Source of the DNA: an uncultured Pseudomonadales bacterium
Lineage (GTDB): Bacteria; Patescibacteriota; Microgenomatia; UBA1400; PJMF01
DNA length: 64,000 bases
Direction: 5' to 3'
NCBI GenBank assembly: GCA_964412775.1
Contig: CAYPPX010000001.1
Location: 65,122-129,121 of the forward strand
A program made the translations under genes and the position numbers. The notes under the pieces were generated by a model. It ran no database searches. It saw only the letters and a program-made list of their open reading frames with translations, and was not told the origin of the DNA. Shown in pieces: positions 2,547 to 57,282 of this stretch. Each line of letters opens with the position of its first letter. Positions within the stretch are counted from its first letter, which is position 1.

Positions 2547-4882
2547 TGATTTTTGGCTCCGCTGATTTTCTAAACCAAGTTTCTTTGTTTTTCATGAACA
2601 TGTTTCTAGTGATTTTATTGTTGATAGCTTTATTTTTTTTGGGTTACTTATTTTTTCAGTGGTTTAAGCATCGTAAGAGAGAAAGCTACTCTTTAGACTT
2701 TGTCACTTTATTAGTGAGATTACCAAAAGATAATGAAATTAAGATTGATGCAGCAGAACAAATGTTCGCTGGTTTGCACTCACTCAAAAAGCAGGGCTTT
2801 TTCTCATTTTTACAGCCAGAGGAAATGATTAGTTTTGAGTTGGTTGGTCTTAAAGAAGAAATTGCCTTTTATGTTAGTTGTTCCAAAAGCATTCGTGATT
2901 TAGTTGAGAAGCAGATTCATGGCGCCTATCCATTTGCTGATATTAAAGAACAAGATGAAGTTAATATTTTTAATGAAAATGGTCGAGTGGGTTTTGCTTC
3001 TTTAAAGTTAAAAGAGGCCCAGTATTTACCAATAAAAACTTATAAAGATTTGCCTACTGATGGTTTGTCTTTGATTACTTCTGCTTTTTCTAAAATGAGT
3101 GAAGGTGAGGGGGCAATTTTGCAAATTTTAATTCACCCAGATGGAAATAAGTGGCAGCAAAAGGGTCGAAGATACATGCAGGATGAAAAGAAACGAGAAG
3201 CTGATCCACAAAAAGCTACCTACGGCCATGATCCTAAAGAGATGGAAGCGATTAATAACAAAATTGATAAGCCAGGTTTTAGGGTTTCTGTCAGAATAGT
3301 GGTTTCAGCCCAAAATGATGTTGCTGCTGAGTCACACTTGAGCAATATTAAGGGAGCTTTTGCCCAATTTGCTTCTGCTTACAATCAGTTTGAGGAACCA
3401 TGGTTTTTTATTAAACATCTTTTTATGATTGATTTTATTTATCGTTATATGCCTTTGTTTGGTTGGGGTAGTTTTACTTTAAACACTGAAGAGTTAGCCA
3501 CTATTTTTCACTTTCCCAACAAAACAGTTGAGACTCATCATATCAAGTGGTTAACAGCCAAAAATGCGCCAGCACCAAACTTGATTCCAAGCCAAGGTTT
3601 ATTTTTGGGTAAATCTGTTTATCGGGGTGAAGTTCGTAATGTTTATATGAACTTAAAAGATCGTCAGCGTCACATGTATATTATTGGTAAAACTGGTACA
3701 GGCAAGTCAGAATTCTTAAAAGAAATGATTATGCAGGATATTGAGTCCGGACAAGGTGTGTGTGCCATTGATCCACATGGTGAGTTTGTTGAAGATATTT
3801 TACAGATGATTCCACCAGAGAGAGCCGAGGATGTAATTTACTTTAATCCATCAGACTCAACTCGCCCAATGGGTTTAAATATGATGGAAGCTGACACTGA
3901 AGAGCAGCGTCACTTTGTGGTTAGTTCTGTTATTGGTTTGATGTACAAACTTTATGATCCACACCGTACTGGTATTATTGGTCCTCGGTTTGAGCATGCT
4001 ATTCGTAATGCAATGCTAACGATTATGTGCAAAGAAGGATCAACTTTTATTGAGTTGGTACGTGCTTTGACTGATCAAAAATTTGTTGAAGAGTTGTTAC
4101 CCCTAGTCAAAGATCCGGTGGTGAAGCGCTATTGGACAGACCAAATGGCTCAAACAAGTGACTTTCATAAATCAGAAGTGCTTGATTACATTGTTTCCAA
4201 GTTTGGGCGTTTTGTGACGAACAAAACGATGAGAAACATTATTGGTCAGCCTTTTAGTGCTTTTAACTTTAGAAAAGCAATGGACGAAAAGAAAATTATT
4301 CTTTGTAATTTATCTAAAGGTATTCTTGGAGAAGAGGATGCTAAATTTTTGGGTTTGATTTTAGTGCCTAAAGTTTTGACTGCAGCGATGAGTCGTCAAG
4401 ATATCCCAATGGAACAGCGTCAAGATTTCTTTTTGTATGTTGATGAGTTTCAAAACTATGCAACCGAAGATTTTGCCACGATTTTATCTGAGGCTCGTAA
4501 ATATAAACTGAACTTAATTGTGGCTAATCAGTTTATTGGCCAGATTGATGAAGAAGTGAAAAATGCTGTTTTTGGTAACGTCGGTACGATGGTGTCATTT
4601 AGAGTAGGTGTGACTGATGCTAATTTCTTACAACATGAGTTTTCACCAACTTTTACTGAGAATGATTTAGCCAATGTAGAGAAATTTCATGTTTATATTA
4701 AAACCATTGTAAACAATGAACCAGTGCCTGCTTTTAGTATGTCTCTTGAAAAAGATATGGACGAAGTTAAAGCAAGGATGAACCCAAAACTAGCAGAAAT
4801 GATTAAGCAACTGTCCAGACTTAAATATGGTAAAGATAAAGAAGTAGTTGAGGCTGAAATCCAAGTTAGAGCTAGGTTGTAA
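2546..4882 (+). CDS. TraG/TraD/VirD4-family (type IV secretion coupling protein-like) P-loop ATPase
   Basis: N-terminal TM helix, Walker A 'IIGKTGTGKSEF', Walker B-like 'FFLYVDEFQN', 778 aa; architecture of T4SS-DNA-transfer/TraM-recognition ATPases common in CPR. Confidence 0.5.
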   Translation: MIFGSADFLNQVSLFFMNMFLVILLLIALFFLGYLFFQWFKHRKRESYSLDFVTLLVRLPKDNEIKIDAAEQMFAGLHSLKKQGFFSFLQPEEMISFELVGLKEEIAFYVSCSKSIRDLVEKQIHGAYPFADIKEQDEVNIFNENGRVGFASLKLKEAQYLPIKTYKDLPTDGLSLITSAFSKMSEGEGAILQILIHPDGNKWQQKGRRYMQDEKKREADPQKATYGHDPKEMEAINNKIDKPGFRVSVRIVVSAQNDVAAESHLSNIKGAFAQFASAYNQFEEPWFFIKHLFMIDFIYRYMPLFGWGSFTLNTEELATIFHFPNKTVETHHIKWLTAKNAPAPNLIPSQGLFLGKSVYRGEVRNVYMNLKDRQRHMYIIGKTGTGKSEFLKEMIMQDIESGQGVCAIDPHGEFVEDILQMIPPERAEDVIYFNPSDSTRPMGLNMMEADTEEQRHFVVSSVIGLMYKLYDPHRTGIIGPRFEHAIRNAMLTIMCKEGSTFIELVRALTDQKFVEELLPLVKDPVVKRYWTDQMAQTSDFHKSEVLDYIVSKFGRFVTNKTMRNIIGQPFSAFNFRKAMDEKKIILCNLSKGILGEEDAKFLGLILVPKVLTAAMSRQDIPMEQRQDFFLYVDEFQNYATEDFATILSEARKYKLNLIVANQFIGQIDEEVKNAVFGNVGTMVSFRVGVTDANFLQHEFSPTFTENDLANVEKFHVYIKTIVNNEPVPAFSMSLEKDMDEVKARMNPKLAEMIKQLSRLKYGKDKEVVEAEIQVRARL

Positions 4883-6787: not shown

Positions 6788-7599
6788 AAAAATTTAATAA
6801 AAAACAACCAATTACTTTAGTCAAACTGGGTGGTTCTATTATCACCAACAAAAAAGAGTTTATGTCTCTCAAGAAAGAGGCAATCAATGATTTGGTTAAG
6901 CAGATTAAGTTGGTTATTAGTAGTTTTCCCAACGAGCATTTGATAGTTGGTCATGGTCAAGGTAGTTATGCTCACTTGCCAGCTAGTAAATATAGAACCA
7001 TGGAAGGTTTTGTTAACCAAGATAGTACTTATGGAATGGCTGTAGTTCAAGATATGGCTGCTAGATTAAATCGAGAAATAGTTGGGGCTTTTATTGAACA
7101 AAATATTCCAGCAGTATCATTTTTAATGAGTAACTCTTTAATTACCGAAAAACAAAAAGCTAGTCAGGACTTTTTTATTCTTTTAGAAAAATATTTAGAA
7201 AAAGGTCTATTTCCAATTACTTGTGGTGATGTTATTTTGGATGAAGTGATGGGGTGCACCATCTGGTCAACTGAAAAAATTCTAACTTTTTTTACCGAAC
7301 AGTTAACAGCGCATGGTTATCAAGTTGAAAGGCTAATTCATATTACTGAAGTTGGTGGTTTCCTTGATGATCAAAATCAAATTATTAAATACATTAATAA
7401 AACTAATTGGCCAAGTTTAAGTAGGCATTTAACAGCAACCAAAGGCGTTGATGTAACAGGTGGAATGGATTTAAAAGTAACAGAATCACTTGCTTTAGCT
7501 AGTAACTTTGGTCTTAAAACATATATTATGTCTGGTAAAAACAATAACTTATATAATTTTTTTGCTAAAAAAGACTGGGTGGGTACAGAAATTAGTTAG
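6784..7599 (+). CDS. isopentenyl phosphate kinase (amino-acid kinase superfamily)
   Basis: LVKLGGSIIT N-terminal motif, GHGQGSYAH, IPAVSF, CGDVILDE, DVTGGMD, GTEI C-terminus; these align with archaeal IPK motifs. Confidence 0.75.
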   Translation: MKKFNKKQPITLVKLGGSIITNKKEFMSLKKEAINDLVKQIKLVISSFPNEHLIVGHGQGSYAHLPASKYRTMEGFVNQDSTYGMAVVQDMAARLNREIVGAFIEQNIPAVSFLMSNSLITEKQKASQDFFILLEKYLEKGLFPITCGDVILDEVMGCTIWSTEKILTFFTEQLTAHGYQVERLIHITEVGGFLDDQNQIIKYINKTNWPSLSRHLTATKGVDVTGGMDLKVTESLALASNFGLKTYIMSGKNNNLYNFFAKKDWVGTEIS

Positions 7600-7960
7600 A
7601 GTTTTCTGGAGTGGGCGTTTGGCTAATTTCGTAGCTTTCCACTACTTGTTTACAATAAATGTATTGACCATATTCGATAGCTTTTTCATGAACTGGTTGT
7701 GAAGTATCTTCTTGGATAGTATTTTTGAAGGCATCTTGGGCAAAATTACCTAGCTCTTTGGCTCTAGTTGAAAAAGTTTCTAGTTGTTCTCCTGAGCTAC
7801 CTTGAAAGTTGTTAAAACTAGGAACTTTATTGGTAGCTTGATCGATTGTTTCTTTGGGGATTGCTGGCAAGTTGGTTGGTAGTAGATTATTGTAGCTAGA
7901 GTAAACATATCCACCGGCTAATCCTAGCAATAACAGAGCTATAATCAATTTTGTTCTCAT
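7592..7960 (-). CDS. small secreted hypothetical protein
   Basis: N-terminal signal peptide (MRTKLIIALLLLGLAGG), 122 aa. Confidence 0.4.
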   Translation of the reverse strand: MRTKLIIALLLLGLAGGYVYSSYNNLLPTNLPAIPKETIDQATNKVPSFNNFQGSSGEQLETFSTRAKELGNFAQDAFKNTIQEDTSQPVHEKAIEYGQYIYCKQVVESYEISQTPTPENSN

Positions 7961-8023: not shown

Positions 8024-9253
8024 ATGATAAAAGAACTTCAGAAAGTAGAGCCGACCCCAAATGAACTATTGGCAGAAAAATTAGAAAAAATAAGCCAAGA
8101 TCCTTTGTTTTGGTTTCTTAAAAAAGAGGTGGTTGAGAATAGCCCTTTTTGGAGACTTTTAACTTATCGTTTGCATGAAGCCCAAAATTCAGTTAATAGT
8201 CGTTTCATTTTTCATAGTAATAAAGTAAAAGCTGAAAATTCTGGATTTGTTTCCAAGCTTGATTTACTAATTGAGACAAGAGGTGGTAAAGAGGGCAAGC
8301 TTAATGAGGATGCCATTATGATTGAAAATCTTGGTGATGGTCGAGCTGTTTTTGCTGTATTCGATGGGGCTTCTAGTCAGGCACCAATCAAGGCTTTAGA
8401 GTCTCATGGTATTTCTGGTGCTTTTTATGTTTCTCATTTAGCTGCTTTTGGTTTTCCGACTAGTGATATCTTCCAAGAACTAAGTCAAAGAGATATTGTT
8501 ACAGCTGGTGAATTTACTAGGGCTTTAAACAAGTGGTTATATGAACAAATGAGTCAAGTTGATGGCGTTGATTATAATGATGTTTTAACTATTCCTGGTA
8601 TGGCCGCGACTATTGTAGTAGTTGATTTTAATAAACAGAATTTGTCAGTAGCAAGTGTCGCAGATACAGTTGGTATTGCTCACCATACAGATGGTGAATG
8701 GGATTATTTTACTGGTAACCTTAACGAAAGATTTGATCTTGAAACAATGTCTTTAGTTAAGCAAATTGCAGTAAGAGAAGGTATTTCAATTAAAGAAGCA
8801 GCTGGTTATCCAGAAGTTAAGGCTCAATTAGCTACTTCATTTAGAAAGAAAATTAATGCCCCAGAAGATTTACAAGGTTTAATTGGTTGTGGAATTTTAA
8901 ATGGTATGCCCGAATTAGAACACCCAGGTTTAATTGAAGAGTATTCTTTGGCTAGTTTGACTGATTTACACCAGTTGGTTTTGTGTAGTGATGGTGCTTT
9001 GACCCCATTTAAGGGTGAGGAAGTGGCTGATTTTTTGGTTAAGTTATTAGCTTTTAAAGAAAAGCACCTAGCTCAGCCAGGAATGATGAACATTGTAAAA
9101 AACTTATTAGATGAAGACCCAGACTTTTCATTGTTTGAACGTTTAAAGCACTCAGATGATGCTAGCTTACTAGTTATTGGGTTTAATCAACTTCGGGCTA
9201 TAGCATTTGAGAGATTTAGTTTGGTTAGGACCTTTTTTCAGAGAAAAAAGTAA
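8024..9253 (+). CDS. PP2C/SpoIIE-like phosphatase-domain protein (divergent)
   Basis: 'AVFAVFDGASS' and 'LVLCSDGALTPF' resemble PP2C motifs 2 and 8, but the His-Gly-Gly of motif 2 is replaced by Ala-Ser-Ser. Confidence 0.4.
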   Translation: MIKELQKVEPTPNELLAEKLEKISQDPLFWFLKKEVVENSPFWRLLTYRLHEAQNSVNSRFIFHSNKVKAENSGFVSKLDLLIETRGGKEGKLNEDAIMIENLGDGRAVFAVFDGASSQAPIKALESHGISGAFYVSHLAAFGFPTSDIFQELSQRDIVTAGEFTRALNKWLYEQMSQVDGVDYNDVLTIPGMAATIVVVDFNKQNLSVASVADTVGIAHHTDGEWDYFTGNLNERFDLETMSLVKQIAVREGISIKEAAGYPEVKAQLATSFRKKINAPEDLQGLIGCGILNGMPELEHPGLIEEYSLASLTDLHQLVLCSDGALTPFKGEEVADFLVKLLAFKEKHLAQPGMMNIVKNLLDEDPDFSLFERLKHSDDASLLVIGFNQLRAIAFERFSLVRTFFQRKK

Positions 9254-9255: not shown

Positions 9256-10464
9256 TTACTCGTATCTCAAAGCTTCAATCGGAGAGAGGCTAGCTGCTCT
9301 TTTGGCTGGAGCAACTCCAAAAATTACTCCAACAGCAGCCGAAACACTAAAGGCTAACATAATGGCACCTAAAGTAATTTTGGCTGGGAAAAAGGCTTGA
9401 ATAGCCAGTGAACCAAGATAAGCAATTGCTAAACCAATCAAACCACCCATAACCGAGAGTAGAGCAGATTCAATTAAAAACTGGACCAAAATTTGTTTTG
9501 GGGTAGCGCCTAGAGCTTTTCTTAGACCAATTTCTCTAGTTCTTTCGGTAACAGAAACTAACATGATATTCATAATCCCAATACCACCAACCACTAGGGA
9601 AATAGCAGCAATGCCCCCAAGACCCACAGTTAGCATGCCCAAAATACCATTAATTGTATCTAGAATTTCAGCTTGATCAACCACACTAAACTCATCTTCT
9701 TCTAGTCTTTTACCCAAAGTATTTTCGATAGCTTTAATTGATTCCTTCATCCTATCTTTGTCATTAATCTTGACCATAATTTCCACAATTTGTTCTGTAT
9801 CATAAATTCTAAAACTAGTTTCCAGTGGTATATATACATAAGTATCAAAACTTGGACCACCTCCACCCCCACCTTGTTTTTCAGCTGTGCCTACGACTTT
9901 AAAGGTTTGGGTACCAAGTTTGACCTTTTTACCAATAGGATCAACTTGACCAAATAACTCATCAGCAATTTGCCAACCCAAAACAGCCACTCTTTCTGCT
10001 CCTTGGTCTTCAGCTTTATTGAAAAACCGTCCTTTTTCTATCCCAATGATGAATTCTTCATATTGGTAGTTTGTACCAATTACTGAGACGGTTTTTTCTT
10101 CCTCTCTGAAAGAAATTTTGTCTGATTGAGTATTCATTGGTATAGCAAATTTGACAAATTCTCTCAGTCTATTAATTTCGTTGACATCTTCTAGTTTTAG
10201 TTTATTGTTAATAAAAGCATTTCTTTGTGATTCGGCGTTAAAGCCACCACCCTCAGCAAAGGGATTTCCTGGAACGATAAAAACATTGTTGGAACCAAGT
10301 GCTTCAAACTGGTCAGTAATGTAGGCTTGGAGACCAGTCCCGATGGAAGTTAGCAAGACTACAGAAGACACCCCAATAATGACACCCAACATGGTTAAGA
10401 ATGACCTACCTTTGTTGACCATGATGGCTTTAATGGCCACCAGGAAAGTATTTTTTAGTTTCAT
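9256..10464 (-). CDS. ABC transporter permease, MacB/FtsX-type
   Basis: N-terminal TM, large extracytoplasmic domain, C-terminal 3-TM FtsX-like domain; G-rich loop (GGGGGG). Confidence 0.75.
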   Translation of the reverse strand: MKLKNTFLVAIKAIMVNKGRSFLTMLGVIIGVSSVVLLTSIGTGLQAYITDQFEALGSNNVFIVPGNPFAEGGGFNAESQRNAFINNKLKLEDVNEINRLREFVKFAIPMNTQSDKISFREEEKTVSVIGTNYQYEEFIIGIEKGRFFNKAEDQGAERVAVLGWQIADELFGQVDPIGKKVKLGTQTFKVVGTAEKQGGGGGGPSFDTYVYIPLETSFRIYDTEQIVEIMVKINDKDRMKESIKAIENTLGKRLEEDEFSVVDQAEILDTINGILGMLTVGLGGIAAISLVVGGIGIMNIMLVSVTERTREIGLRKALGATPKQILVQFLIESALLSVMGGLIGLAIAYLGSLAIQAFFPAKITLGAIMLAFSVSAAVGVIFGVAPAKRAASLSPIEALRYE

Positions 10465-11159
10465 TTCTTTATTTTTCCATCATGAATTTCAATACTAGAA
10501 TGAGCAATTTTAGCCACATCATGTTCGTGGGTGACCATAATGATAGTTTTACCTTCTTTGTTGAGTTCTTTGAGAATTTTTTCAACTTCTTGTCCAGATT
10601 TAGAGTCTAAGTTGCCAGTTGGTTCATCAGCAAAAATAATTGAGGGGCTATTAATCAGTGCCCTAGCGATGGCAACCCTTTGTTGTTGACCACCAGATAA
10701 TTGTGCCGGACTGTTGTCCAATCTATTACCCAGTCCCACTCTTTCTAACATTACTTTGGCCATTTCCAGCCGAGTTTTTTCATCAATCCCAGCGTAAACT
10801 AGAGGTAAAGCAACATTTTCGAGAGCAGATGTTTTAGCTAGAAGGTTGAAGTTTTGAAAAATAAAGCCGATCTCTTTGTTTCTTAAATGGGCTCGTTCAA
10901 CTTCATCATAAGTAGTGGTATCTTTACCATTGATGAAAATTTTACCAGAGCTTGGGGCAGCTAAAATACTAGCGACCTGTAGAAAGGTTGATTTTCCAGA
11001 ACCAGATGGGCCCATGACTGATAGAAAGTCACCAGCTCGGACCTTTAAAGAAATACCATCTAAAGCTCTAATTTTTTGAGTACCAAGCGAATATTCTTTG
11101 ACAACATCAATCAATTCTAAAACTACTGGTTTATTATTTTTACTTGCTTTTTGAGACAT
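10461..11159 (-). CDS. ABC transporter ATP-binding protein (MacB/LolD-like)
   Basis: Walker A GPSGSGKST, signature LSGGQQQRVAIARAL, Walker B IIFADEPTGNLD; 4-nt overlap with the downstream permease gene. Confidence 0.9.
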   Translation of the reverse strand: MSQKASKNNKPVVLELIDVVKEYSLGTQKIRALDGISLKVRAGDFLSVMGPSGSGKSTFLQVASILAAPSSGKIFINGKDTTTYDEVERAHLRNKEIGFIFQNFNLLAKTSALENVALPLVYAGIDEKTRLEMAKVMLERVGLGNRLDNSPAQLSGGQQQRVAIARALINSPSIIFADEPTGNLDSKSGQEVEKILKELNKEGKTIIMVTHEHDVAKIAHSSIEIHDGKIKK

Positions 11160-11161
11160 CT

Positions 11162-12208
11162 TTATTCTGGAATAACGATTTCATCACTTGTAGATAAACC
11201 ACTAACTACCTCAATTTTTTCGTCTGTTTCTAATCCAACCTCAATTTCTCTTTCTTCGGTGGTTTTGTTGTCAATTTTGATATCAACATAGGTTTTACCA
11301 TCTCTTTCTTTGATTGCGACCAAAGGAACTGTCATCACATTCTGTTTGGTTTCTAGCTCTATTTTGACATCACCATTCATGCCTAAGCGGTATTTAGTTA
11401 AATCGTTTGATGAGATAGGAAACTCAACGACAAAGGCTGTACCACTAGCTGATGGAACACTTTGAAAAGAAATATAGTTGACAGCACTAGTGAAATTTTC
11501 TTCTGGGTAAGCATCTAGTTCGATTGTGGCTGATTGATTTTGAGTAACCAACGAAATATCTGATTCGTCAACTAAAGCTTTGAAAGTAAGTGTGGCTGGG
11601 TTAACAATCTCAAAACTATCTGTAGCTAAGAGTTGAACTCCAGTCACCGGAGTTGGACTTTTAATCAAGATACCATCAAATGGTGAAGTCATCACTCCAT
11701 TTGAGATAGAAATGGCAGCTAGTTCCACATCAAGAACTGAGTTAGTAAGGTCAAATTGTTCTTTGTCGATGGTTCTTTTTAAAGATTCATCAACGGTTGT
11801 GCCATCACCAATATCGTCCTGTCTTTGGTCCCAATCAAGTCTTTCCTTAGAGTAAGCATTGAGGTACTTTTCTTGAGTTTTTAGGGCAGTCCTTTGATCA
11901 ACTGTGGCGATGGTTTGCCATTTTTTGACAGTATCACCTTCTTTGGCTCCCAGGTAAACCACTTTACCACCAGCCACAAAGCGCAGGCTAACTTTTTCTT
12001 TAGCATCAATAACACCAGAAACATCAAGAGTTTTAGTAATGGTTTCAATTGTGGGGTGAGCGAAAACAAGAACTGGTTGGTTAGCTTTACTTTTAATGAT
12101 GTTGTTTAAAATTAATCCCAGAATCACAACGACAGTAATAATTAACCACTTTCTTTTTTGCCAGATGCTTTTTAGATTGCTAAATAAACCTTTAATTTTA
12201 TTTGCCAT
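11162..12208 (-). CDS. HlyD/MacA-family periplasmic adaptor (efflux membrane-fusion protein)
   Basis: N-terminal TM anchor, coiled-coil region, beta-barrel-like C-terminal region, 348 aa; operon with MacB-like ATPase/permease. Confidence 0.6.
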   Translation of the reverse strand: MANKIKGLFSNLKSIWQKRKWLIITVVVILGLILNNIIKSKANQPVLVFAHPTIETITKTLDVSGVIDAKEKVSLRFVAGGKVVYLGAKEGDTVKKWQTIATVDQRTALKTQEKYLNAYSKERLDWDQRQDDIGDGTTVDESLKRTIDKEQFDLTNSVLDVELAAISISNGVMTSPFDGILIKSPTPVTGVQLLATDSFEIVNPATLTFKALVDESDISLVTQNQSATIELDAYPEENFTSAVNYISFQSVPSASGTAFVVEFPISSNDLTKYRLGMNGDVKIELETKQNVMTVPLVAIKERDGKTYVDIKIDNKTTEEREIEVGLETDEKIEVVSGLSTSDEIVIPE

Positions 12209-12250
12209 AAGTCTTTCTCAGATTATAGTTGCTCAATTATATAACTTTAG

Positions 12251-12323
12251 TGCGTGCGCTAGGACTTGAACCTAGAACCACCAAGGTATAAGCTTGGCGC
12301 TCTGCCAATTGAGCTACGCACGC
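12251..12323 (-). tRNA. tRNA-Ile (anticodon UAU)
   Basis: Hand-folded 73-nt cloverleaf on minus strand: acceptor GCGTGCG/CGCACGC, D-stem GCTC/GAGC, anticodon stem CCAAG/CTTGG with loop CTTATAC, T-arm CTAGG-TTCAAGT-CCTAG; no encoded CCA. Confidence 0.8.
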
Positions 12324-12412
12324 TTTATGATGTGCTAATTATAAAACAAAACAGATTAAACTATTTGAGTAGTTTGATTTAGTTATTTGTAGTCAGCTGG
12401 TGGAAATGTTCG

Positions 12413-12454
12413 TGTGAGACACTTGCCCACGGGGCAGAGGGGTCGGGTTGTTTT
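12413..12454. repeat. GC-rich ~40-nt conserved intergenic motif, copy 2
   Basis: gtgagacacttgcccacggggcagaggggtcgggttgttttc; lies between surface-protein gene stop and tRNA-Ile. Confidence 0.45.
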
Positions 12455-12456
12455 CT

Positions 12457-13689
12457 TTACAAGAAGAGTAACAGTAATGCACCAATACCAAGGGCTCCAA
12501 GACCAACTTGTAAGTATTGTAGCCAATTTTCTGGACCACTCTTTGGTAGCTCTGAAGGAAGAGTTGGTTCAGTTGAAGTATATCTGTTAGTGATATTAAC
12601 AGTAGCCGTACTTGAAGACGATGAGCTAGATGAGGAACTACTGCTACTACTGCCTTCAGTTGGAACGGCTGTTGGGGCATTACAACAGGCTGCTTTGCCA
12701 GGGTTAGCGATACAAGCATCCTCATAGGCAGGCATTGAACAATAATTGTCACCGTCATTGGCAGTGACACAGATTAAGCCATCATTACAATCATTATCAT
12801 CGTCACAAGGGGTGTAGCCACATTCTTCTGGTAAAGGAGTTGGAGTAATAGTTGGGGTAGGTTCATTACAACAGGCCTCAACACCAGGGTTAGCGATACA
12901 AGCATCCTCATATTCAGGTAGAGAACAGTATTTATCACCATCATCAGCAGTAACACAGATCAAACCCTCATCACAGCTGGCATCAGTAGTACAAGGAGTG
13001 TAACCACATTCACTAATCATCGGAGTTGGACTTGGGGTAACAGTAATGGTTGGAGTAATAGTTGGGGTTACACCAGGAGGTAGTGTTGGAGTTGGACTTG
13101 GTACTCTGGTTGGTGTTGGAGTAGCAGTTGGTGTAATAGTCGTAGTTGGAGGCTCGGTTGGTTCAGGTGGTTCGGTGGGTCTTGGTGGTCTAGTAGGTCC
13201 ACCACCAGGACAACAGCCATCTTCATCTGGCCCATAAATATCAGAACAACACACATAGCCTTCAACACAACAAGTTGTTCCTTGGCCTTGATAGTTAGTA
13301 CAGTAAGCTCTGCCTTGATTTTCACATTGGGTTTCTAATTCTGGTTCGCATTTTGTTCCATTACATAAATCTCCACCTAAACAGTGACACCACTCTGGGT
13401 GTCCACCACAAGCATTAGGGTCATTAATGTTACACTCAAAGTTACTATATTGACCGGTATCTGCCTGTTGACGTAAATCTTGGTTGAGTTTGGTCATGTA
13501 AAGACCAGCAATACCTCCAAGAACTAGGAGTAAAAGTGATAAAAAAGCAAAAACAAGTTTTGTTTTTTTACTATTTGTATTTTTTAGTTTTTTTTCTTTG
13601 AAACTATTACCATCACCATTAACTATAGTCTTATCTAAAGAGGGGATATCACCAATTGGCTGGTTGATTTTAGTTAACAGGTCGGACAT
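12457..13689 (-). CDS. cysteine-rich cell-surface protein, paralog 1 (signal anchor, Cys modules, PT linker, poly-Ser, C-terminal LPKSG sorting-like signal)
   Basis: ORF 12457-13701 starts at a TTG; the first ATG is at 13689. N-terminal TM followed by conserved [17 protein letters not shown], two ECGYTPC...CVTADDGDKYCSLPEYEDACIANPG..CC modules, 16 consecutive Ser, and C-terminus ...[30 protein letters not shown]. Confidence 0.6.
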   Translation of the reverse strand: MSDLLTKINQPIGDIPSLDKTIVNGDGNSFKEKKLKNTNSKKTKLVFAFLSLLLLVLGGIAGLYMTKLNQDLRQQADTGQYSNFECNINDPNACGGHPEWCHCLGGDLCNGTKCEPELETQCENQGRAYCTNYQGQGTTCCVEGYVCCSDIYGPDEDGCCPGGGPTRPPRPTEPPEPTEPPTTTITPTATPTPTRVPSPTPTLPPGVTPTITPTITVTPSPTPMISECGYTPCTTDASCDEGLICVTADDGDKYCSLPEYEDACIANPGVEACCNEPTPTITPTPLPEECGYTPCDDDNDCNDGLICVTANDGDNYCSMPAYEDACIANPGKAACCNAPTAVPTEGSSSSSSSSSSSSSSTATVNITNRYTSTEPTLPSELPKSGPENWLQYLQVGLGALGIGALLLLFL

Positions 13690-13747
13690 GTATTTATACA
13701 ATACATAGAATAGCTTGTTTTTTATAGATTCGTCAATCTGCTGATTA

Positions 13748-15082
13748 TTATAAAAATAAGATTAATAATGCCCCAATACCTAATGCTCCAAGACCAATTT
13801 GTAAGTAGTTTAGCCAGTCGCTTGGTCCAGATTGAGGTAATTTTTCTGGATAGGTTGGTTGCTCACCTTTTGTAGTGGTTTTAGTGGTTGTTTTAGTTGG
13901 AGTTGCTGTTGTTGTTTTAGTAGCCACTTTGGTTGGAGAAGAGGTCGTATTGTTGGTAACAGTTCTGCCTCCACCTGACACAACAGTATTATTTTCAATG
14001 TTTATAACGACTGATGAAGATGAACTACTGCTAGAACTGCTGCTAGATGAGCTACCTCCACTTGGTGGGTTGGTTGGAGCAATACAACAAACAGCTTTAC
14101 CAGGGTTAGCGATACAAGCTTCTTCATATTCTGGCATCGAACAATAGTTATCACCGTTATTAGCAGTGACACAAATTAGGTCATCGCTACAATCGTTATC
14201 ATCGTCACAAGGAGTGTAACCACATTCTTCAGGTGCTGGAGTAGCGGTTGGAGTTGGAGTGGTAGTGGCTGTTGGAGCGATACAACAAGATTCGGTGCTT
14301 GGGTTATCTATACAAGCATCTTCATATTCTGGTATCGAACAATAGTTATCACCGTCATTAGCAGTGACACAAATTAGGTCATCGCTACAATCGTTATCAT
14401 CGTCACAAGGAGTGTAACCACACTCACTTGGCTCTGGGGTAGCAGTTGGAGCGTTACAACATTTTTCTACTCCTGGTTCGATAGCACATTCTTCAGCATA
14501 TTCTGGCATCGAACAATAGTTATCACCGTTATCAGCAGTGACACAGATTAAATCTTCACCACAGTCATTATCATCATCACATGGGGTGTAGCCACACTCA
14601 CTTGGCTCTGGGGTAGCAGTTGGAGCGTTACAACATTTTTCTGTCCCTGGTTCAGCGATACAAGCTTCTTCATATTCAGGTAAAGAACAATAGCTATTTC
14701 CATTTTCAGCGGTAATACAACTGAGGCCCTCAGCACAGTCGTTGGCCGTTTCACAAGGGCCAAAGCCACAATTTGCTTTGAGAGTTGGACCTGGAACAGT
14801 AAAGGAAATATGGCAACTATCTTGATTTATAAAGGCTGCAGGTTGTGAGTCTGGAGCATTTGGAGCTTTAATTGAATCATCAATAAATTGTTTTTGTGAA
14901 ATTAATACGCCAGCTAATCCAAGAATAAAAAAAGATAATAATCCAAAGGTAGTTAGGATAATATTTTTAATATTCTTCTTTGGTTTTTCTGGTTTGTTAA
15001 ATGAAGGCACGGAATCATTCAGCTTTACTTCAAAAGCTGTTGGATCTTGTTTGACTGGTAGGTTCTTTTTTAAATCAAGCAT
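13748..15082 (-). CDS. cysteine-rich cell-surface protein, paralog 2 (four tandem 8-Cys modules, C-terminal LPQSG signal)
   Basis: N-terminal TM; 4 repeats of SECGYTPCDDDNDC..DLICVTA.NGDNYCS.PEYEEACI..PG...CC.APTAT; poly-Ser (16); TTK-rich linker; C-terminus [32 protein letters not shown]; 9 nt downstream of paralog 3 (operon). Confidence 0.65.
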   Translation of the reverse strand: MLDLKKNLPVKQDPTAFEVKLNDSVPSFNKPEKPKKNIKNIILTTFGLLSFFILGLAGVLISQKQFIDDSIKAPNAPDSQPAAFINQDSCHISFTVPGPTLKANCGFGPCETANDCAEGLSCITAENGNSYCSLPEYEEACIAEPGTEKCCNAPTATPEPSECGYTPCDDDNDCGEDLICVTADNGDNYCSMPEYAEECAIEPGVEKCCNAPTATPEPSECGYTPCDDDNDCSDDLICVTANDGDNYCSIPEYEDACIDNPSTESCCIAPTATTTPTPTATPAPEECGYTPCDDDNDCSDDLICVTANNGDNYCSMPEYEEACIANPGKAVCCIAPTNPPSGGSSSSSSSSSSSSSSVVINIENNTVVSGGGRTVTNNTTSSPTKVATKTTTATPTKTTTKTTTKGEQPTYPEKLPQSGPSDWLNYLQIGLGALGIGALLILFL

Positions 15083-15091
15083 TTTTACTTT

Positions 15092-16255
15092 TTAGTCTTC
15101 ACAAGCTGTTGGTGTTAGGCTCTCCCAATCACAAACAGTATCTCCTGCTTCATCGATGCTACAAACAGAACATTGAGCCATGTAATCACCATACATACTA
15201 ATATTGTAATTAATTCCGTTTTCACCCTCTTCATTAATAAATTCTAGAGGTTCTAAGTGGTTATGACTGCCACATGGTTCGTAGATTCTAAAGGCGTAGA
15301 AGTATCCATCTGGTAAGGAACTTTGATTACTACTACAAACAAATCTAACAGTACTTTGTCCAGCAATAAGTTGATCATCGTCATTAGCTGACATTAGACT
15401 GCTTTGACCACTAGTCACGTTGTACATAGCAATATCTCTACATTGTGGTCCAATCATTGTTGTAGGGGTTGGAGTAGGCTCATTACAACAGGCCTCAACA
15501 CCAGGGTTAGCGATACAAGCATCCTCATATTCAGGTAGAGAACAGTATTTGTCACCATCATTAGCAGTGACACAGATTAAACCATCGTTACAACTGGCAT
15601 CAGTAGTACAAGGAGTGTAACCACACTCATTAATTACTGGAGTTGGACTTGGTGTAGGAGTGCTAGTTGGTGTAGGGGTAGCAGTAGGGGTAATGGTTGT
15701 AGTTGGTGGGTCAGTTGGATCTGGAGGATCATCTGGAGGGTCGTTTGGAGGGCAGTCAGTACAGACAACTCCGGCATCTTCACACAAAGCATCACAGCTA
15801 TCTGCAACACCAATTACCCAGTAGCCCTGGTCATTTCCTGGACCACATTTGCAACGGATCATACCTCCAGTACAACCTTCTACAACTGTAGTATTGGGAT
15901 TGTCACACCAATCACCACCCAAAGTATCTTCTGTACATAAACCGTCATCGTCATAACCACAAACAATAATGCCGTCACCATCAGGATCATCACAGTTTTC
16001 TAGCACACAACGGCCATTCACTAGATGGTAGTTTGGTTCGCAACTATATTGACCGGTATCTGCTTGTTGACGTAAGTCTTGGTTGAGTTTGGTCATAAAC
16101 AAGCCAGTGGTAACACCAATTACTAAAAAGAGTAAGGAGGCGATACCGATTAATAACTTATTTTTTGAAGATTGAGCGACAGCAAATTGAACCGTTTTTT
16201 TGCTTGGTTCTCTAGCAGAACTAAAACTAGTATTTTGGGGATCACTAGATTCCAT
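15092..16255 (-). CDS. cysteine-rich secreted/surface protein, paralog 3 (no C-terminal sorting signal)
   Basis: N-terminal TM + [18 protein letters not shown] (nucleotide sequence nearly identical to paralog 1), Cys-rich N domain, PT linker, one ECGYTPC module, distinct Cys-containing C-terminal domain ending ...TPTACED. Confidence 0.6.
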   Translation of the reverse strand: MESSDPQNTSFSSAREPSKKTVQFAVAQSSKNKLLIGIASLLFLVIGVTTGLFMTKLNQDLRQQADTGQYSCEPNYHLVNGRCVLENCDDPDGDGIIVCGYDDDGLCTEDTLGGDWCDNPNTTVVEGCTGGMIRCKCGPGNDQGYWVIGVADSCDALCEDAGVVCTDCPPNDPPDDPPDPTDPPTTTITPTATPTPTSTPTPSPTPVINECGYTPCTTDASCNDGLICVTANDGDKYCSLPEYEDACIANPGVEACCNEPTPTPTTMIGPQCRDIAMYNVTSGQSSLMSANDDDQLIAGQSTVRFVCSSNQSSLPDGYFYAFRIYEPCGSHNHLEPLEFINEEGENGINYNISMYGDYMAQCSVCSIDEAGDTVCDWESLTPTACED

Positions 16256-16312
16256 AAATAAACTGTTATTAAGAATATATCTTTTTTCAAGTACTCGTCA
16301 ATGAATAAAAAT

Positions 16313-16340
16313 AAAAAGGGACTAATTTTTAGTCCCTTTT
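16313..16340 (-). terminator. intrinsic terminator downstream of paralog 4
   Basis: Perfect 10-bp stem aaaagggact/agtccctttt with 7-nt loop, followed on the minus strand by T-rich tract. Confidence 0.55.
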
Positions 16341-16365
16341 ATTAATCTTAGTTATTATTGGTTTT

Positions 16366-17214
16366 TTATAAGAAGAGTAGTAGCAGTGCTCCAGCTCCTA
16401 AAGCACCCAAACCAATCTGTAAGTATTTAAGCCAGTCTTCTGGTCCAGTTTCTGGTAATTGTTCTGGTAAATCTGGTTGAGTAGTGTAACTAGTAGTACC
16501 AGTGCTGGTGCTAGTATTGATGTTTACAGTAGCACTACTATTACTTTCTGAGTAACTACTTGATGAACTGCCATCATTGTTGTTTGATTGGGTTGGTTCT
16601 GCTGTTGGTTCGGTTGTGGGCTCACTTCCACCAGTAGTTGGTTCGGTTGTCGGTTCACCGGTTGGTTCGGTTGTGGGCTCACCAGTTGGTTCAGTTGTAG
16701 GTTCACCAGTTGGTTCAGTTGTAGGTTCTGCTGTTGGTTCGGTTGTCGGTTCACCGGTTGGTTCGGTTGTGGGAGCTACAGTTGGAGTTGGATCAGATGA
16801 TCCAGCATCACAAGTACACTTAGCTTTACCATCGTTTCCAATTTGGTTTGGTAGTGATCTACATTCTCCATCACCACCACATGAATCACCTGGATCTTTG
16901 CCTTGACATTGAGAAGCAGAAGCATCAGAACAGTCGCCTCCAGTAGTGTATGCTCCTGTATCAGCCTGTTGACGTAAATCTTGGTTAATCTTCATCAAGT
17001 AAAGACTAATTCCACCACCTATTACTAATAGTAGTAAGAGAATCCCAGCAATTAGATAGCGTTTATTACTTTTTCTAGTGGGTTTTTTTGAAAATCTTTT
17101 TAGAGTCGGTTCTTTGTTTTCTGCTTTGTCGCTATTTAATTGAGTTGGATCAGCTGGTAAGCTAGGTCCAGACACATCGTTGCTATAACTAGGATTTTGG
17201 ATGGTATTAATCAT
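16366..17214 (-). CDS. cysteine-rich cell-surface protein, paralog 4 (EPTT/GEPT tandem repeats, C-terminal LPETG signal)
   Basis: N-terminal TM + [17 protein letters not shown], 12-Cys domain, about 9 tandem TEPTGEPT repeats (12/24-nt DNA periodicity), S-rich tract, C-terminus [32 protein letters not shown]. Confidence 0.6.
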
Positions 17215-17290: not shown

Positions 17291-18139
17291 TTGAATAGTA
17301 ATTTATATTATGGTATTTATTTTTATATAGAACTAAGACTTGTGACAATCAACAATTTAAGATCTCTTGAAAAATACAAAAACTGGTTTGATTTTTTGTG
17401 GTCAATGGCTGAAAAAGAAACTAAAGCAAGATATAAAAATGCTTTGCTTGGTTTTTCGTGGATGGTTATCAATCCAGTTTTGCAAATGTTAATTATTGGG
17501 ATTATTTTTCAGTTTTTTGTTTCTTTTCAAACCATAGACAACTATTATTTATTTTTGTTAGTTGGTTTATTAGTATGGAATTTTTTTTCATCAAGCTTGA
17601 GCCAAGTTTCTCCTGTTTTTATTCAGCAACGTTTTTTATTACAAAAAGCAAGTTTTTCTAGAGAGATTTTGCCACTTTCGGTTATTTTGTCGAATATGTT
17701 TCATATTATTGTTTCTCTTGTTTTACTTTTAGTTTATATTTTTATTTTTAATGGTTTTGTTTTTTCATTTGTTAAATTAGTGTTACTTCTTTTTTCAGTT
17801 ATTTGGTTGCTTATTTTTACTAGTGGATTGGGTTTGTTGACTTCATCTTTAAATGTCAAATACAGAGATGTAAGTTTTATGGTTCAAGCATCGTTACCAC
17901 TTGGTTTCTACTTAACGCCGATTATTTATGATGAAAGCATGTTGCCTGGCAGTATTAGGTGGTTATTATTCATTAACCCTTTGAGTTCAATTATTGCAAA
18001 TTTAAAATCTGTATTTTTATCAACTACTGTTTTATCTATTAATTACCAAATACTTAGTATTTTTGTGACAATTTTAATTTTATTTTTAGGCATTTTTGTT
18101 TTTTTTAGAAACAGTAAAAACTTTAGTGACTATGTTTAA
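17291..18139 (+). CDS. ABC-2 type polysaccharide/teichoic-acid export permease (Wzm/TagG-like)
   Basis: 'LWSMAEKETKARYKNALLGFSWMVINP' matches the Wzm/KpsM N-terminal signature, 6 TM; true start may be GTG at 17342 or ATG at 17405. Confidence 0.7.
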   Translation: MNSNLYYGIYFYIELRLVTINNLRSLEKYKNWFDFLWSMAEKETKARYKNALLGFSWMVINPVLQMLIIGIIFQFFVSFQTIDNYYLFLLVGLLVWNFFSSSLSQVSPVFIQQRFLLQKASFSREILPLSVILSNMFHIIVSLVLLLVYIFIFNGFVFSFVKLVLLLFSVIWLLIFTSGLGLLTSSLNVKYRDVSFMVQASLPLGFYLTPIIYDESMLPGSIRWLLFINPLSSIIANLKSVFLSTTVLSINYQILSIFVTILILFLGIFVFFRNSKNFSDYV

Positions 18140-18142
18140 TTT

Positions 18143-18871
18143 ATGAAAAAAAATGCTGTTATTTCTCTAAAGAACATTACTAAAGAATATACTTTAAGAG
18201 GGCATAGACCAACTTTAGTGGAAAGATTGCTTGGGAAATCTAAGTTGGAAAAAGTTGAAGCATTACATAATTTGAGTATTGATATTTTTCCTGGGCAAAA
18301 AGTAGGTATTGTTGGCTCAAATGGTTCAGGTAAAACTACTTTTTTAAAAATTATTTCTAATATTTCTCAACCCACATCTGGTGAAATGAAAGTTGTTGGT
18401 CGAGTTGTGTCAGTCATAGATTTGGAGGCTGGATTTCATCCAGATCTTTCAGGTAGAGAGAATATTATGATTAATGGCATGATTTTAGGTATGACTAAGA
18501 AAGAAATATTATCAAAAATGAATGAAATTCTTTCTTTTGCTGATATTGGTAGATTTATTGATGAACCAATATTTACTTATTCAAAGGGCATGAAACTTAG
18601 GTTGGGCTTTGCTATTGCAATTAGTAGTGATCCGGATATTTTTTTGCTTGATGAGATGATTGCTGTAGGTGATAAAGAATTTAAAGCCAAAACGGCAAAA
18701 AAAGTTGCTTCTTTTTTGAAGCAAGGTAAAGTGGTGGTTATTGCTAGTCATTTAATTGATTTTATTGGTCTTTCATGCAAAAGAATTGTTTGGTTGGAAA
18801 AAGGTAAAATTTTGGCAGATGGTGGTAAAGAAGTTGTAAAAAAGTACAAAAAATACAAAAGTTCTTTATAA
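18143..18871 (+). CDS. ABC-2 exporter ATP-binding protein (Wzt/TagH-like)
   Basis: Walker A GSNGSGKTT, Walker B FLLDEMIAVGD, 242 aa without C-terminal carbohydrate-binding domain. Confidence 0.85.
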   Translation: MKKNAVISLKNITKEYTLRGHRPTLVERLLGKSKLEKVEALHNLSIDIFPGQKVGIVGSNGSGKTTFLKIISNISQPTSGEMKVVGRVVSVIDLEAGFHPDLSGRENIMINGMILGMTKKEILSKMNEILSFADIGRFIDEPIFTYSKGMKLRLGFAIAISSDPDIFLLDEMIAVGDKEFKAKTAKKVASFLKQGKVVVIASHLIDFIGLSCKRIVWLEKGKILADGGKEVVKKYKKYKSSL

Positions 18872-26797: not shown

Positions 26798-27703
26798 ATG
26801 TCTGGTTTGTTGACTGTCGCAATTGTCACTAAAAATAGGAAAGTTGAGTTAAATAATTGTTTATCTAGTTTGGTAGAGCAAAAAGTTTTACCAAATGAAG
26901 TATTAGTTATTGATAACGACCCAGCTAGATCTGCTCAGGAAGTTATTAAAAATGAACGGTTCAAGGTTCTTAATATTAAGTATCTGAATTCAAAAAAAAC
27001 AGTCCCTGGTTGTAGAAACTTAGCTTTGGCCAAAACTAAAACTAAGTTTTTAGCGTTTACTGACGATGATTGTGTTTTAACACCCAATTGGCTTGCTTCT
27101 GGTTTGAGTAAGATAAAAACACACAATTCAAGTTACGTTTTAGGCAACAGTTTATTGTTAAACAAGCAAAGTATTTTAGCTTCAGCTCAGTTTGCTAGAG
27201 AAAACTATTGGAGAAAAATTGGTTTAAAAAAAGACTCAACTGATCCTAGAGAAGTTTTTGATACCAAAAATGTAATCATCAACTTACAAAAAATAATCAA
27301 AAATAAATTGAAGTTTGATGAAAAGATTCAATTTGGAATATATGACACGGCTGACTTTGATTTTGGTTATCAACTAAAAGCTGCAGGTTTAACTGGTTGT
27401 TATGAAAAAGAAATGAAGCTCTATCATGCCGAAACGTCAGTATTTAGGTCTTTTGCTCAAAAAGCTTTTGCTAGAGGCAAGTTAATGAATATTTTGCAAC
27501 AGAAGTTTGAAATTAAAAAAGATTTTATCAATAAGCGTGATGTGATTTTGCTTTTGTGGATTTTCAGGTTAATTAAACATTTCAGAGGAGATTTTAAAAA
27601 GTACTCAAAACAGATTAGTGGTGGAACTTTTAAAAAATTATTGGTTATTTTAAGTATCAAAGTTTATGAGAGATTTTTTGCTCTTGGGTATTCAGCCTCA
27701 TGA
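26798..27703 (+). CDS. glycosyltransferase family 2
   Basis: 'VAIVTKNRKVELNNCLSSLVEQ', 'VIDNDPA', 'TDDDC' DxD region. Confidence 0.7.
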   Translation: MSGLLTVAIVTKNRKVELNNCLSSLVEQKVLPNEVLVIDNDPARSAQEVIKNERFKVLNIKYLNSKKTVPGCRNLALAKTKTKFLAFTDDDCVLTPNWLASGLSKIKTHNSSYVLGNSLLLNKQSILASAQFARENYWRKIGLKKDSTDPREVFDTKNVIINLQKIIKNKLKFDEKIQFGIYDTADFDFGYQLKAAGLTGCYEKEMKLYHAETSVFRSFAQKAFARGKLMNILQQKFEIKKDFINKRDVILLLWIFRLIKHFRGDFKKYSKQISGGTFKKLLVILSIKVYERFFALGYSAS

Positions 27704-45626: not shown

Positions 45627-45700
45627 GGGCCCTTAGCTCAGTTGGCTAGAGCGCTACATTTGCAATGTAGAGGCCAAGGGTTCGAGCCCCTTAGGGTCCA
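45627..45700 (+). tRNA. tRNA-Ala (anticodon UGC)
   Basis: Hand-folded: acceptor GGGCCCT/AGGGTCC (one G-U), D-arm GCTC-AGTTGGCTA-GAGC, anticodon arm CTACA-TTTGCAA-TGTAG, T-arm AAGGG-TTCGAGC-CCCTT. Confidence 0.85.
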
Positions 45701-45931
45701 CCGAGCAACTTAACATTAAGAAGTGGGTGAAAAACTTGGGCTTTTTGTTATTCGTTCATGGGTTGTTGGAAAAAACTAACGACTCGGAGCGAACAACAAG
45801 AAGCACAAACTTCTTGATTAGTTTGTTCTTTAAAAAGTGAAGAGATATGTCATCTAATAGTAAAATTCGTCGAGAATTTTATAACAAAATTTAATTAATT
45901 TAAATTTAAAAATGCAAATTTCGCTAATTAT

Positions 45932-48845
<2,914 letters not shown>

Positions 48846-57270: not shown

Positions 57271-57282
57271 TTTTGGGAAAAA

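Follow-up and report, generated by a model that had tools for sequence, protein, structure and literature searches.

How are proteins sorted to and held at the surface of the ultra-small Patescibacteria (the candidate phyla radiation, CPR)? These bacteria account for a substantial part of bacterial diversity, and knowledge of how their envelope is assembled and decorated is scant; as episymbionts, they live attached to other microbes (PMC12857230). The question is raised here by four successive minus-strand open reading frames (ORFs), named par1 to par4, which span positions 12457-17214 of a 64-kb stretch of contig CAYPPX010000001.1 (the whole stretch is referred to below as the window). A first-pass annotation, made from the sequence letters and a list of ORFs, had described them as four simple paralogs encoding cysteine-rich surface proteins of an unrecognised family, with a non-canonical LPxTG-like signal at the C-terminus. 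We find that the locus is an envelope gene cluster of Pacebacteria-type Patescibacteria that codes for three to four different disulfide-rich surface proteins, and that it represents a lineage-specific variant of LPXTG-type sorting on new, uncharacterised protein families. This finding is somewhat richer than what was first described, yet less exotic.

Four surface proteins, their C-terminal tail and two N-terminal motifs

The ORF list and the translations agree with the annotated gene positions, and the four products are laid out as follows (TM, transmembrane segment; the N-motif and the class II N-terminus are described below):

16366..17214, minus strand: par4, 282 aa, a short stalk protein with an N-terminal cytoplasmic region, TM, N-motif, 6-Cys domain, PT(E) repeat, Ser-rich stretch and LPETG tail
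15092..16255, minus strand: par3, 387 aa, tail-less, with TM, N-motif, Cys-rich N-terminal region, one 8-Cys module and a C-terminal domain of FN3/immunoglobulin (Ig)-like type
13748..15082, minus strand: par2, 444 aa, with a class II N-terminus, four 8-Cys modules, a 14-Ser run, a Thr/Lys-rich stretch and LPQSG tail
12457..13689, minus strand: par1, 410 aa, with TM, N-motif, a Cys-rich domain of about 80 residues, PT linker, two 8-Cys modules, a 14-Ser run and LPKSG tail

The ATG at 13689, as annotated before, is the most probable start of par1; the longest ORF would begin at a TTG at 13701. All four are cysteine-rich cell-surface proteins of ultra-small Patescibacteria (Pacebacteria, CPR). 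The par3 protein shares 100% identity with database protein P0018 (P numbers denote database proteins, L numbers related loci), the 90%-identity cluster mates of par3 and par4 lead to a metagenome-assembled genome of a 'Candidatus Pacebacteria bacterium', and a database search with par1 returned 59 homologues, of which those with a named source all come from Patescibacteria, Pacebacteria or Peregrinibacteria metagenome bins. The assignment to the surface or envelope, and to a family not yet characterised, was borne out, as scans of all four against Pfam and NCBIfam yielded no family that describes them. Marginal or compositional matches to the DX module (26 bits), PT repeat, FliL and TonB were not accepted as a family for any of the four. 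We further consider the name 'RNA polymerase sigma factor' of homologue P0038 a mis-annotation, given that the similar window protein, par4, has no domain match that would support it.

Three of the four proteins, namely par1, par2 and par4, finish in LPx[ST]GPxxWLxYLQ[IV]GLGALG[IA]GALL[LI]LFL with the stop codon directly after, as had been noted, and par3 is devoid of this tail:

16369..16458, minus strand: C-terminal sorting signal of par4 (30 residues, LPETG), then stop
13751..13840, minus strand: C-terminal sorting signal of par2 (30 residues, LPQSG), then stop
12460..12549, minus strand: C-terminal sorting signal of par1 (30 residues, LPKSG), then stop

Across homologues the conserved element comprises about 38 residues, reading QPxLPxxLPx[T/S]G-P[E/A]DW plus a further 21 residues. 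An exhaustive comparison of a tail profile with 1.84 billion representative proteins yielded 199 protein clusters at E<=1e-3, including 79 at E<=1e-10. The tailed proteins are 200-1500 residues long, and in nearly all of the 150 matches listed the match ends at the very last residue (in three it ends one residue earlier, and two proteins extend 5 or 12 residues beyond the tail). At the motif position, 177 tailed proteins read LPxTG (80), LPxSG (56) or LPxAG (10), together 146/177, and the Gly of this LPx[T/S/A]G core is invariant in the tail alignment (A3). Given that the same motifs recur in the 59 database homologues, and the tail in 199 clusters, the motifs of the window are not due to chance, nor is their conservation limited to this one genome, an outcome that had been envisaged at first. 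In the AlphaFold2 (AF2) model of par1, LPKSG lies in a disordered segment and residues 389-409 form a terminal helix. Judged by its sequence conservation and its position, the tail is a real, modular element that is predicted to act as a C-terminal sorting signal, and it is an extended, uncharged, lineage-specific version of the Gram-positive LPxTG signal.

The description of this signal as LPXTG-like but non-canonical also agrees with the scores of the curated models. With TIGR01167, the LPXTG anchor model (cutoff 15.9 bits), par4 reached 14.8 bits and par2 11.6 bits, while par1 gave no match; for PF00746, the score of the window proteins was 10.1 against a cutoff of 20. NCBI lists homologue P0017 under the name 'LPXTG cell wall anchor domain-containing protein', and the JGI names are similar. 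Standard annotation and the curated LPXTG model largely overlook the tail.

What the tail is attached to was read from 85 tailed proteins that were scanned for domains. DUF11/CLIPPER repeats were found in 27-32 of them, bMG10 in 18 and the RrgB-type isopeptide-forming fimbrial domain (TIGR04226; best E 1e-25) in 22; further proteins of this set carry SasC-type or Myxococcus-type Cys repeats, one of them matching both TIGR02232 and DUF4215. The tail therefore sits on passengers like those of Gram-positive sortase substrates. The median Cys content of tailed proteins is 4.6%.

At their other end, all four proteins begin with a polar region of 30-55 residues, which is followed by a single hydrophobic segment. 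A 15-residue N-motif, starting with [LM][TM]K[LI], comes after this segment in par1, par3 and par4, which again matches the earlier count of three in four:

16954..16998, minus strand: N-motif of par4, directly after its TM (17002-17058); DNA repeat family D4
16052..16096, minus strand: N-motif of par3, after its TM (16103-16159)
13453..13497, minus strand: N-motif of par1, after its TM (13507-13563)

The N-motif is missing from par2, where the TM is followed at this position by ISQKQ..APNAPDSQPAAF (full par2 stretch, ISQKQFIDDSIKAPNAPDSQPAAF). Two lineage-specific juxtamembrane motifs can be distinguished, namely class I, ..Q[DE][LIV]RQQA, and class II, ..Q[KR]Q..(V)APNAPxSxPxA. Class I is present in 58 of 147 full-length tailed proteins (about 39%) and class II in at least 58 of the 147 (at least 39%), and most of the others are visibly class II variants. 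In the AF2 models of par1 and par3, the TM and the class I motif form a single unbroken helix, which ends at ..QQAD (..QQADT in par3). In both classes conservation ends at an Ala, the last residue of ..RQQA and of ..SxPxA, and this Ala may mark a non-canonical processing site. As neither class fits the usual signal peptidase rule of small residues at -3 and -1, we treated the hydrophobic N-terminal segment as a signal-anchor. Processing of the type IV pilin kind was rejected because no class III signal of the GFTLIE type (cut after the G) precedes the hydrophobic segment. An extreme N-terminal peptide, M..(E/Q)PQAxYxK, which is presumably cytoplasmic, is kept in many class II tailed proteins (P0087-P0190; L017, L019, L020) and is only weakly visible in par2 (window positions 15020-15082).

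A conserved gene order and shared cysteine modules

Are the four genes copies of one another? The idea of four simple paralogs gave way to a different picture, as they are distinct orthogroups of a conserved cluster and no recent paralog burst. A fixed order of par4-like, par3-like, par2-like and, optionally, par1-like genes recurs in at least eight Pacebacteria genomes, where the par4-like protein combines class I with the tail, the par3-like protein is class I, Cys-rich and tail-less, and the par2-like protein combines class II with the tail. Orthologues of par4 hold the first cluster position in L001, L003, L008, L010 and L012-L015, and the par2 orthologues in L001, L005, L007, L019 and L020 have the same N-terminal class as par2. 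In related loci the par3-type gene always lies directly ahead of the par2-type gene. Distant lineages carry other passengers (a 700-aa CLIPPER protein and a 440-710-aa Cys-rich protein) and yet retain the pair, in which the gene of a class I tail-less protein, ending like par3 in an ..AQC.[IV]C.. beta-sandwich, lies 7-26 nt ahead of the gene of a class II tailed protein. The core of the cluster is an ancient, tightly coupled pair of a tail-less par3 type and a tailed par2 type.

This bears on the role of par3. It had been pointed out correctly that par3 has no tail and that its stop codon is separated from the par2 start by a gap of 9 nt, and par3 had been taken for a released form of par2. 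Since the pair persists in distant genomes with different passengers, par3 is instead a conserved partner gene and not a truncated or released par2 copy, and it has an FN3-like C-terminal domain of its own. The arrangement of the genes also suggests how they are transcribed: a separate transcription unit is probable for par4 and co-transcription for par3-par2, with the following element between par4 and par3:

16314..16340, minus strand: strong terminator-like hairpin with a 12 bp stem and then a run of T

The Cys-dense modules that had been ascribed to all four proteins resolve, by regular-expression mapping, into a 47-residue unit with eight Cys (consensus CGYTPC..C..LICVTA.DGD.YCS.PEYE.ACI..PG...CC; spacing CGYTPC-x5-C-x5-C-x10-C-x8-C-x8-CC). 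This unit occurs twice in par1, four times in par2 and once in par3; the claim does not extend to par4, which lacks the shared module and has six Cys only, in a small 6-Cys domain. Modules, domains and linkers are placed as follows, with the AF2 confidence (pLDDT, predicted local distance difference test) where relevant:

14630-14770, 14456-14596, 14282-14422 and 14084-14224 (together 14084..14770), minus strand: tandem 8-Cys modules of par2, with APTATPEPSE-type linkers between them
12868-13008 and 12682-12822 (together 12682..13008), minus strand: 8-Cys modules of par1, pLDDT 86-92
15485..15625, minus strand: 8-Cys module of par3, pLDDT 79-88
15095..15454, minus strand: C-terminal beta-sandwich of par3 (FN3/Ig-like), residues ~268-387, conserved Cys in ..AQC.VC.., pLDDT 83-91
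13201..13440, minus strand: N-terminal Cys-rich domain of par1, ~18 Cys in 80 residues, pLDDT 52-79 (moderate)
16612..16803, minus strand: (T)EPT(G/A)EPT linker of par4, 12/24-nt tandem repeats of family D3, Pfam PT repeat
12610..12651, minus strand: 14-Ser run of par1, separating its last module from the tail
14012-14053, minus strand: 14-Ser run of par2, at the position equivalent to that of par1

At the DNA level, the module repeats of par2 make up repeat families D1 and D2, with 61-89% identity. A 218-nt repeat copy covering module 1 of par1 shares 88% nucleotide identity with the copy around the par3 module, indicating that modules move between the genes of the array. Four ORFs on the opposite strand (12393-12770, 13068-13325, 13875-14147 and 16577-16906) were dismissed as shadow ORFs of the repeats. 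Structure prediction was confident for the 8-Cys module, a beta-hairpin with two short helices (pLDDT 79-92), and for the C-terminal domain of par3. For the module, no structural neighbour emerged, and neither Pfam nor NCBIfam provided a model match beyond the marginal 26-bit 'DX module'. A Foldseek search against the PDB returned nothing at E<0.04, its top match being a Wzt carbohydrate-binding domain that we did not treat as meaningful, and a PDB sequence search with par2 gave no match. The N-terminal Cys-rich domain of the par1 type is also present in par3-type proteins of relatives (alignments A4 and A6), and the Cys-rich region that follows the N-motif in par3 itself bears no resemblance to it. 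The proteins consist of Ser, Thr and Pro to 26-35%, and the linkers and the LPxSG region are disordered in the AF2 models. A run of 14-16 Ser had been reported for each gene; the runs in fact comprise 14 Ser in par1 and par2 and 5 in par4, and there is none in par3.

Knottin-like, Cys-rich modules in variable copy number could also point to secreted effectors or toxins, which would diversify as paralogs, have their N-terminal segment removed as a signal peptide and act on host or competitor cells. The episymbiotic life of Patescibacteria (PMC12857230) would suit such a role, as would the fact that par4 (69% identity) and par3 (85%) diverge faster than the flanking genes (93-97%) with respect to the closest relative. 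This divergence, however, follows a gradient, with identity dropping towards the neighbouring glycan island from 99.8% for par1 (compared with its L001 orthologue) to 91%, then to 85% for par3 and 69% for par4, and it is explained by the recombination of that island beside par4. Moreover, a hydrophobic anchor signal closes three of the four proteins, an N-terminal TM segment with a long conserved cytoplasmic region is common to all of them, and with their stable orthogroups in fixed order, and par1 conserved to 99.8%, they do not behave as a fast-turnover paralog family. Owing to the anchors and the stable orthogroups we do not favour the effector alternative, and consider it very unlikely.

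Probable anchoring at the surface and the genomic neighbourhood

What would hold these proteins at the surface? On balance we favour sortase-type wall anchoring of probably glycosylated surface proteins, in which the tail-less protein is the partner of an anchored one. Insertion would occur via the N-terminal segment, either as an N-in signal or as a signal-anchor, and oxidation of the Cys modules would take place on the outer side of the membrane. A housekeeping sortase, whose gene would lie elsewhere in the genome, would then cut LPx[T/S]G ahead of its Gly and link the protein to peptidoglycan, so that the Ser/Thr/Pro-rich stretch, probably O-glycosylated, would serve as a wall-spanning stalk. 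The par3-type protein, which has no tail, would either stay at the surface or be released there, and might, together with the anchored par2 type, form a two-subunit surface structure for adhesion or an envelope function. Previous work reported that over half of CPR genomes encode a sortase family, which is nearly universal in Microgenomates and is accompanied by MdbA/VKOR-type disulfide machinery (PMC6744442), described sortase as 'common in CPR' (PMC6851277) and found Cys-rich exported proteins along with a sortase A in Peregrinibacteria (PMC4736985). A peptidoglycan acceptor exists as well, given that the window encodes a class A penicillin-binding protein (PBP) and MurJ. O-glycosylation of the stalks is plausible from their composition and context.

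Several observations weigh against this reading. A search for the processing enzyme detected no sortase in the window (Pfam on all ORFs of >=110 aa; no TLxTC motif) or in 357 kb made up of the window and 22 related loci (phmmer with Staphylococcus aureus SrtA; regular expression H...TLxTC...R), and the contexts of six further tailed proteins contained no sortase either. No basic residues follow the hydrophobic segment of the tail: a basic C-terminal cluster was absent from all of the ~170 tails listed, and the three window tails all end in ...LLFL before the stop. In classical S. aureus sortase substrates, basic C-terminal residues are required for anchoring. Conservation also reaches about 25 residues past LPxTG, farther than is customary in sortase signals, and may hint at another partner that recognises the tail; two of the three window tails have Ser in place of Thr, and only 3 of the 85 scanned tailed proteins reach E<=0.02 with TIGR01167. 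As to the stalks, the support for glycosylation consists of their composition and a variable neighbouring glycan island. Finally, the N-terminal segment resembles an uncleaved anchor, with its conserved cytoplasmic N-region of 40-80 residues and no AxA site, and a sortase product would consequently be tethered at both ends, barring additional cleavage.

Some of these features would be accommodated if the tail were a permanent C-terminal membrane anchor, such that the protein is held at both ends, or a signal for a different sorting enzyme of the exosortase, archaeosortase or rhombosortase kind. The roughly 30 strongly conserved tail residues, which include GPEDW and a Gly-zipper-like GLGALGxGA, go far above what a sortase normally needs, and the lack of basic residues, the many tailed proteins missed by the curated LPXTG model and the lack of a sortase near any of the about 20 loci searched point in the same direction. 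On the other hand, the best-conserved short element of the tail is precisely the LPx[T/S/A]G core with its invariant Gly (146/177), it stands 8-10 residues ahead of the helix as in sortase signals, and the passengers are sortase-substrate domains. Furthermore, exosortase-type signals normally bear an Arg-rich cluster, which these tails do not have, NCBIfam gave no match to PEP-CTERM, PGF-CTERM or GlyGly-CTERM, and no exosortase- or rhomboid-like gene is present in the window. We regard such an anchor or enzyme as possible but unlikely, and continue to prefer sortase-type wall anchoring.

The neighbours of the array, a Wzm/Wzt exporter on one side and a MacAB/HlyD-type exporter with a tRNA-Ile gene on the other, were confirmed by the Pfam, ORF and tRNA data:

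9256..12208, minus strand: membrane fusion protein (MFP, HlyD/YknX type), ATP-binding cassette (ABC) ATPase and MacB/FtsX permease, immediately downstream of the array (Pfam)
12250-12323, minus strand: tRNA-Ile with anticodon TAT (UAU), between par1 and the MFP gene
17291..18871, plus strand: Wzm/Wzt glycan ABC exporter, the first genes of the glycan island
17291-43169: glycan island, 26 kb, GC 27-30% vs 35-41% in the flanks

A tRNA-Ile with a UAU anticodon is an uncommon way of reading AUA in bacteria, which usually employ a CAU anticodon modified with lysidine.

The MFP, ABC and MacB genes, together with a conserved protein of about 120 residues, follow the array in 13 loci (L001-L005, L008, L010-L014, L019 and L020), and beyond the MacB block come a VirB4-like DUF87/TrwB ATPase, DUF192 and Lgt. 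This constancy, which includes distant lineages with wholly different passengers, could be taken to mean that the array is tied to the MacB-type ABC/MFP system, a pump that would extract or export the anchored proteins or glycolipid partners; such a tie would fit either model of anchoring. Yet Lgt, DUF192, the VirB4-like gene, the small protein, MacB, ABC, MFP and the array are all collinear and may simply have inherited their order, so that the adjacency of array and MacB alone is no proof of coupling. In addition, L007 has its MFP gene 9 kb from the array with unrelated genes between, L020 has other genes inserted between array and MFP, and in the window a gap of 250 nt and the tRNA gene separate par1 from the MFP gene. 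A functional tie to the pump or to the VirB4-like ATPase appears possible but rather unlikely to us.

The VirB4/TrwB-like block is probably part of a Patescibacterial apparatus resembling a type IV secretion system (T4SS) (PMC12102498), and it keeps its order relative to the MacB system and the array in the distant loci L019 and L020 too. One possibility is that the par3-par2 pair is the host-contact adhesin of the Patescibacterial T4SS, for which a survey of this essential system stated that 'No adhesins, such as the MPF-FATA PrgB, were detected' (PMC12102498). In a broader version of this idea, the pair would be the surface part of a Patescibacteria-wide apparatus that has its own sorting route, through a specialised sortase or a non-sortase enzyme, with possible processing after the Ala of ..RQQA or ..SxPxA and coupling to the MacB exporter and the VirB4-type ATPase. 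We hold both versions to be rather improbable.

The glycan island encodes, besides Wzm/Wzt, GT2, GT1 and WecG transferases, a carbamoyltransferase, an epimerase, GDSL esterases, a Bac_transf initiating transferase and two Wzy_C proteins (27700-29178 and 39960-42542), one of which is fused to TPR. Its content differs in the closest relative, L001 and L003 have other glycan genes in its place, and in other lineages (L017, L021 and L023) the island is missing from beside the array, whose neighbours there are S1 and PGK. This variable content and the identity gradient towards the island make it a recombining neighbour and no fixed part of the system, and it looks like a horizontally exchanged cassette. 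Relaxed Pfam scans of its unannotated proteins for a protein O-glycosyltransferase returned nothing usable. A dedicated link between the array and its flanking exporters, as first proposed, did not emerge from a neighbourhood that is collinear on one side and variable on the other.

The window contains further features of interest. The VirB4/TrwB-like ATPase (DUF87, 778 aa) is encoded on the plus strand at 1527-4882, and a low-complexity 339-aa protein, DUF192 and Lgt precede it (with 341-1515). The small conserved protein (7592-7960, minus strand) measures 109-122 aa, has an N-terminal TM and a C-terminal ..ERAF.Y.RYLYC.QVV.DYE, and its gene always follows that of the MacB permease, including in distant lineages; no known family matched it. 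A gene for a PP2C-family phosphatase (8024-9253, plus strand) lies between the MacB permease and the small conserved genes and is also found in L008, but not at this site in L001-L004 and L010-L014. Farther away, the plus strand carries tRNA-Ala, 23S rRNA (45926-48844) and 5S rRNA (48954-49070) genes within 45627-49070, and as there is no 16S gene in the 45 kb upstream of the 23S and 5S genes, the rRNA genes are unlinked. Next, at 49147-50662 (plus strand), two ORFs of 313 and 208 aa overlap in different frames and encode multi-TM or hydrophobic products with no Pfam match, which look like one GT-C-like membrane protein split by a frameshift or an assembly error. Homologues of PilN and PilO for type IV pilus assembly (56665-58286, plus strand) adjoin MurJ, a GH18 hydrolase and the class A PBP (54814-56595 and 59917-63481); the organism has type IV pilus and peptidoglycan machinery.

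Sorting code and comparison with known systems

The locus defines a sorting code, made up of two N-terminal motif classes and an extended, uncharged tail of LPxTG type, which marks about 200 protein families of one CPR lineage as surface-displayed and which current models mostly miss. A dedicated tail profile would improve the annotation of CPR surface proteomes and flag candidate host-attachment adhesins, and the pair of tail-less and tailed proteins beside a MacB-type pump and a VirB4-like ATPase is a concrete target for genetics in Saccharibacteria-like organisms. Should the tail prove to need no classical basic retention signal, the accepted rules for what can be a sortase substrate would become broader.

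Two known types of surface protein were ruled out for the window. Sortase-assembled pilins of the RrgB/SpaA type do not apply, as Pfam and NCBIfam revealed no isopeptide domains in the window proteins and there is no adjacent sortase. Serine-rich repeat glycoproteins of the accessory Sec pathway do not apply either, since the Ser runs are single stretches of 14, TIGR03715 was not matched, and neither SecA2/Y2 nor GtfA/B is encoded in the window. Proteins with the YSIRK/GS (TIGR01168) or KxYKxGKxW (TIGR03715) signal are comparable in that short conserved motifs lie in an unusually long N-terminal signal region and are combined with a C-terminal anchor. In contrast to them, the motifs themselves are different here, neither model appeared in the NCBIfam results, the class I motif comes after the hydrophobic segment and cleavage is not evident.

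Glycosylated surface proteins are a further point of reference. Among these, Actinomyces oris GspA, the paper on which is referenced in PMC11623550, is reportedly a sortase-anchored glycoprotein, SD-repeat proteins are said to be glycosylated by SdgA/B, and Geobacillus WsaB is said to act in S-layer O-glycosylation by way of Wzm/Wzt and a Wzy_C-type transferase. The Ser/Thr/Pro-rich stalks and the Wzm/Wzt, glycosyltransferase and two Wzy_C genes beside the array recall such systems, whereas the island is variable, none of its glycosyltransferases is assigned to protein glycosylation, and SLH or S-layer domains are missing. High Cys content and repeated extracellular modules are shared with the Cys-rich exported proteins of CPR bacteria (Peregrinibacteria, PMC4736985) and with Myxococcus-type repeats (TIGR02232/DUF4215), unlike which the 8-Cys module has no model match beyond the marginal 'DX module'.

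With PEP-CTERM/exosortase, PGF-CTERM/archaeosortase and GlyGly-CTERM/rhombosortase, the tail has in common that a lineage-restricted conserved motif and a TM helix are placed on many unrelated passengers; it differs by its LPxTG-like motif, the lack of an Arg-rich cluster and of any match to these models, and the lack of a cognate enzyme in the window. Compared with LPXTG signals, finally, the tail has no positively charged end, about 25 extra conserved residues, a QPxLPxx prefix and frequent Ser in place of Thr, the curated hidden Markov model (HMM) stays below threshold for the window proteins and most of the family, and no sortase was located in the window and the related loci. Nevertheless, the tail resembles the signals of S. 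aureus protein A and ClfA (TIGR01167/PF00746) in the LPx[T/S]G motif followed by a hydrophobic helix at the protein end, and the proteins resemble LPXTG proteins in their upstream Ser/Thr/Pro-rich, presumably wall-spanning region, in the layout of signal, binding modules, stalk and anchor, and in the DUF11- and RrgB-type passengers of the family.

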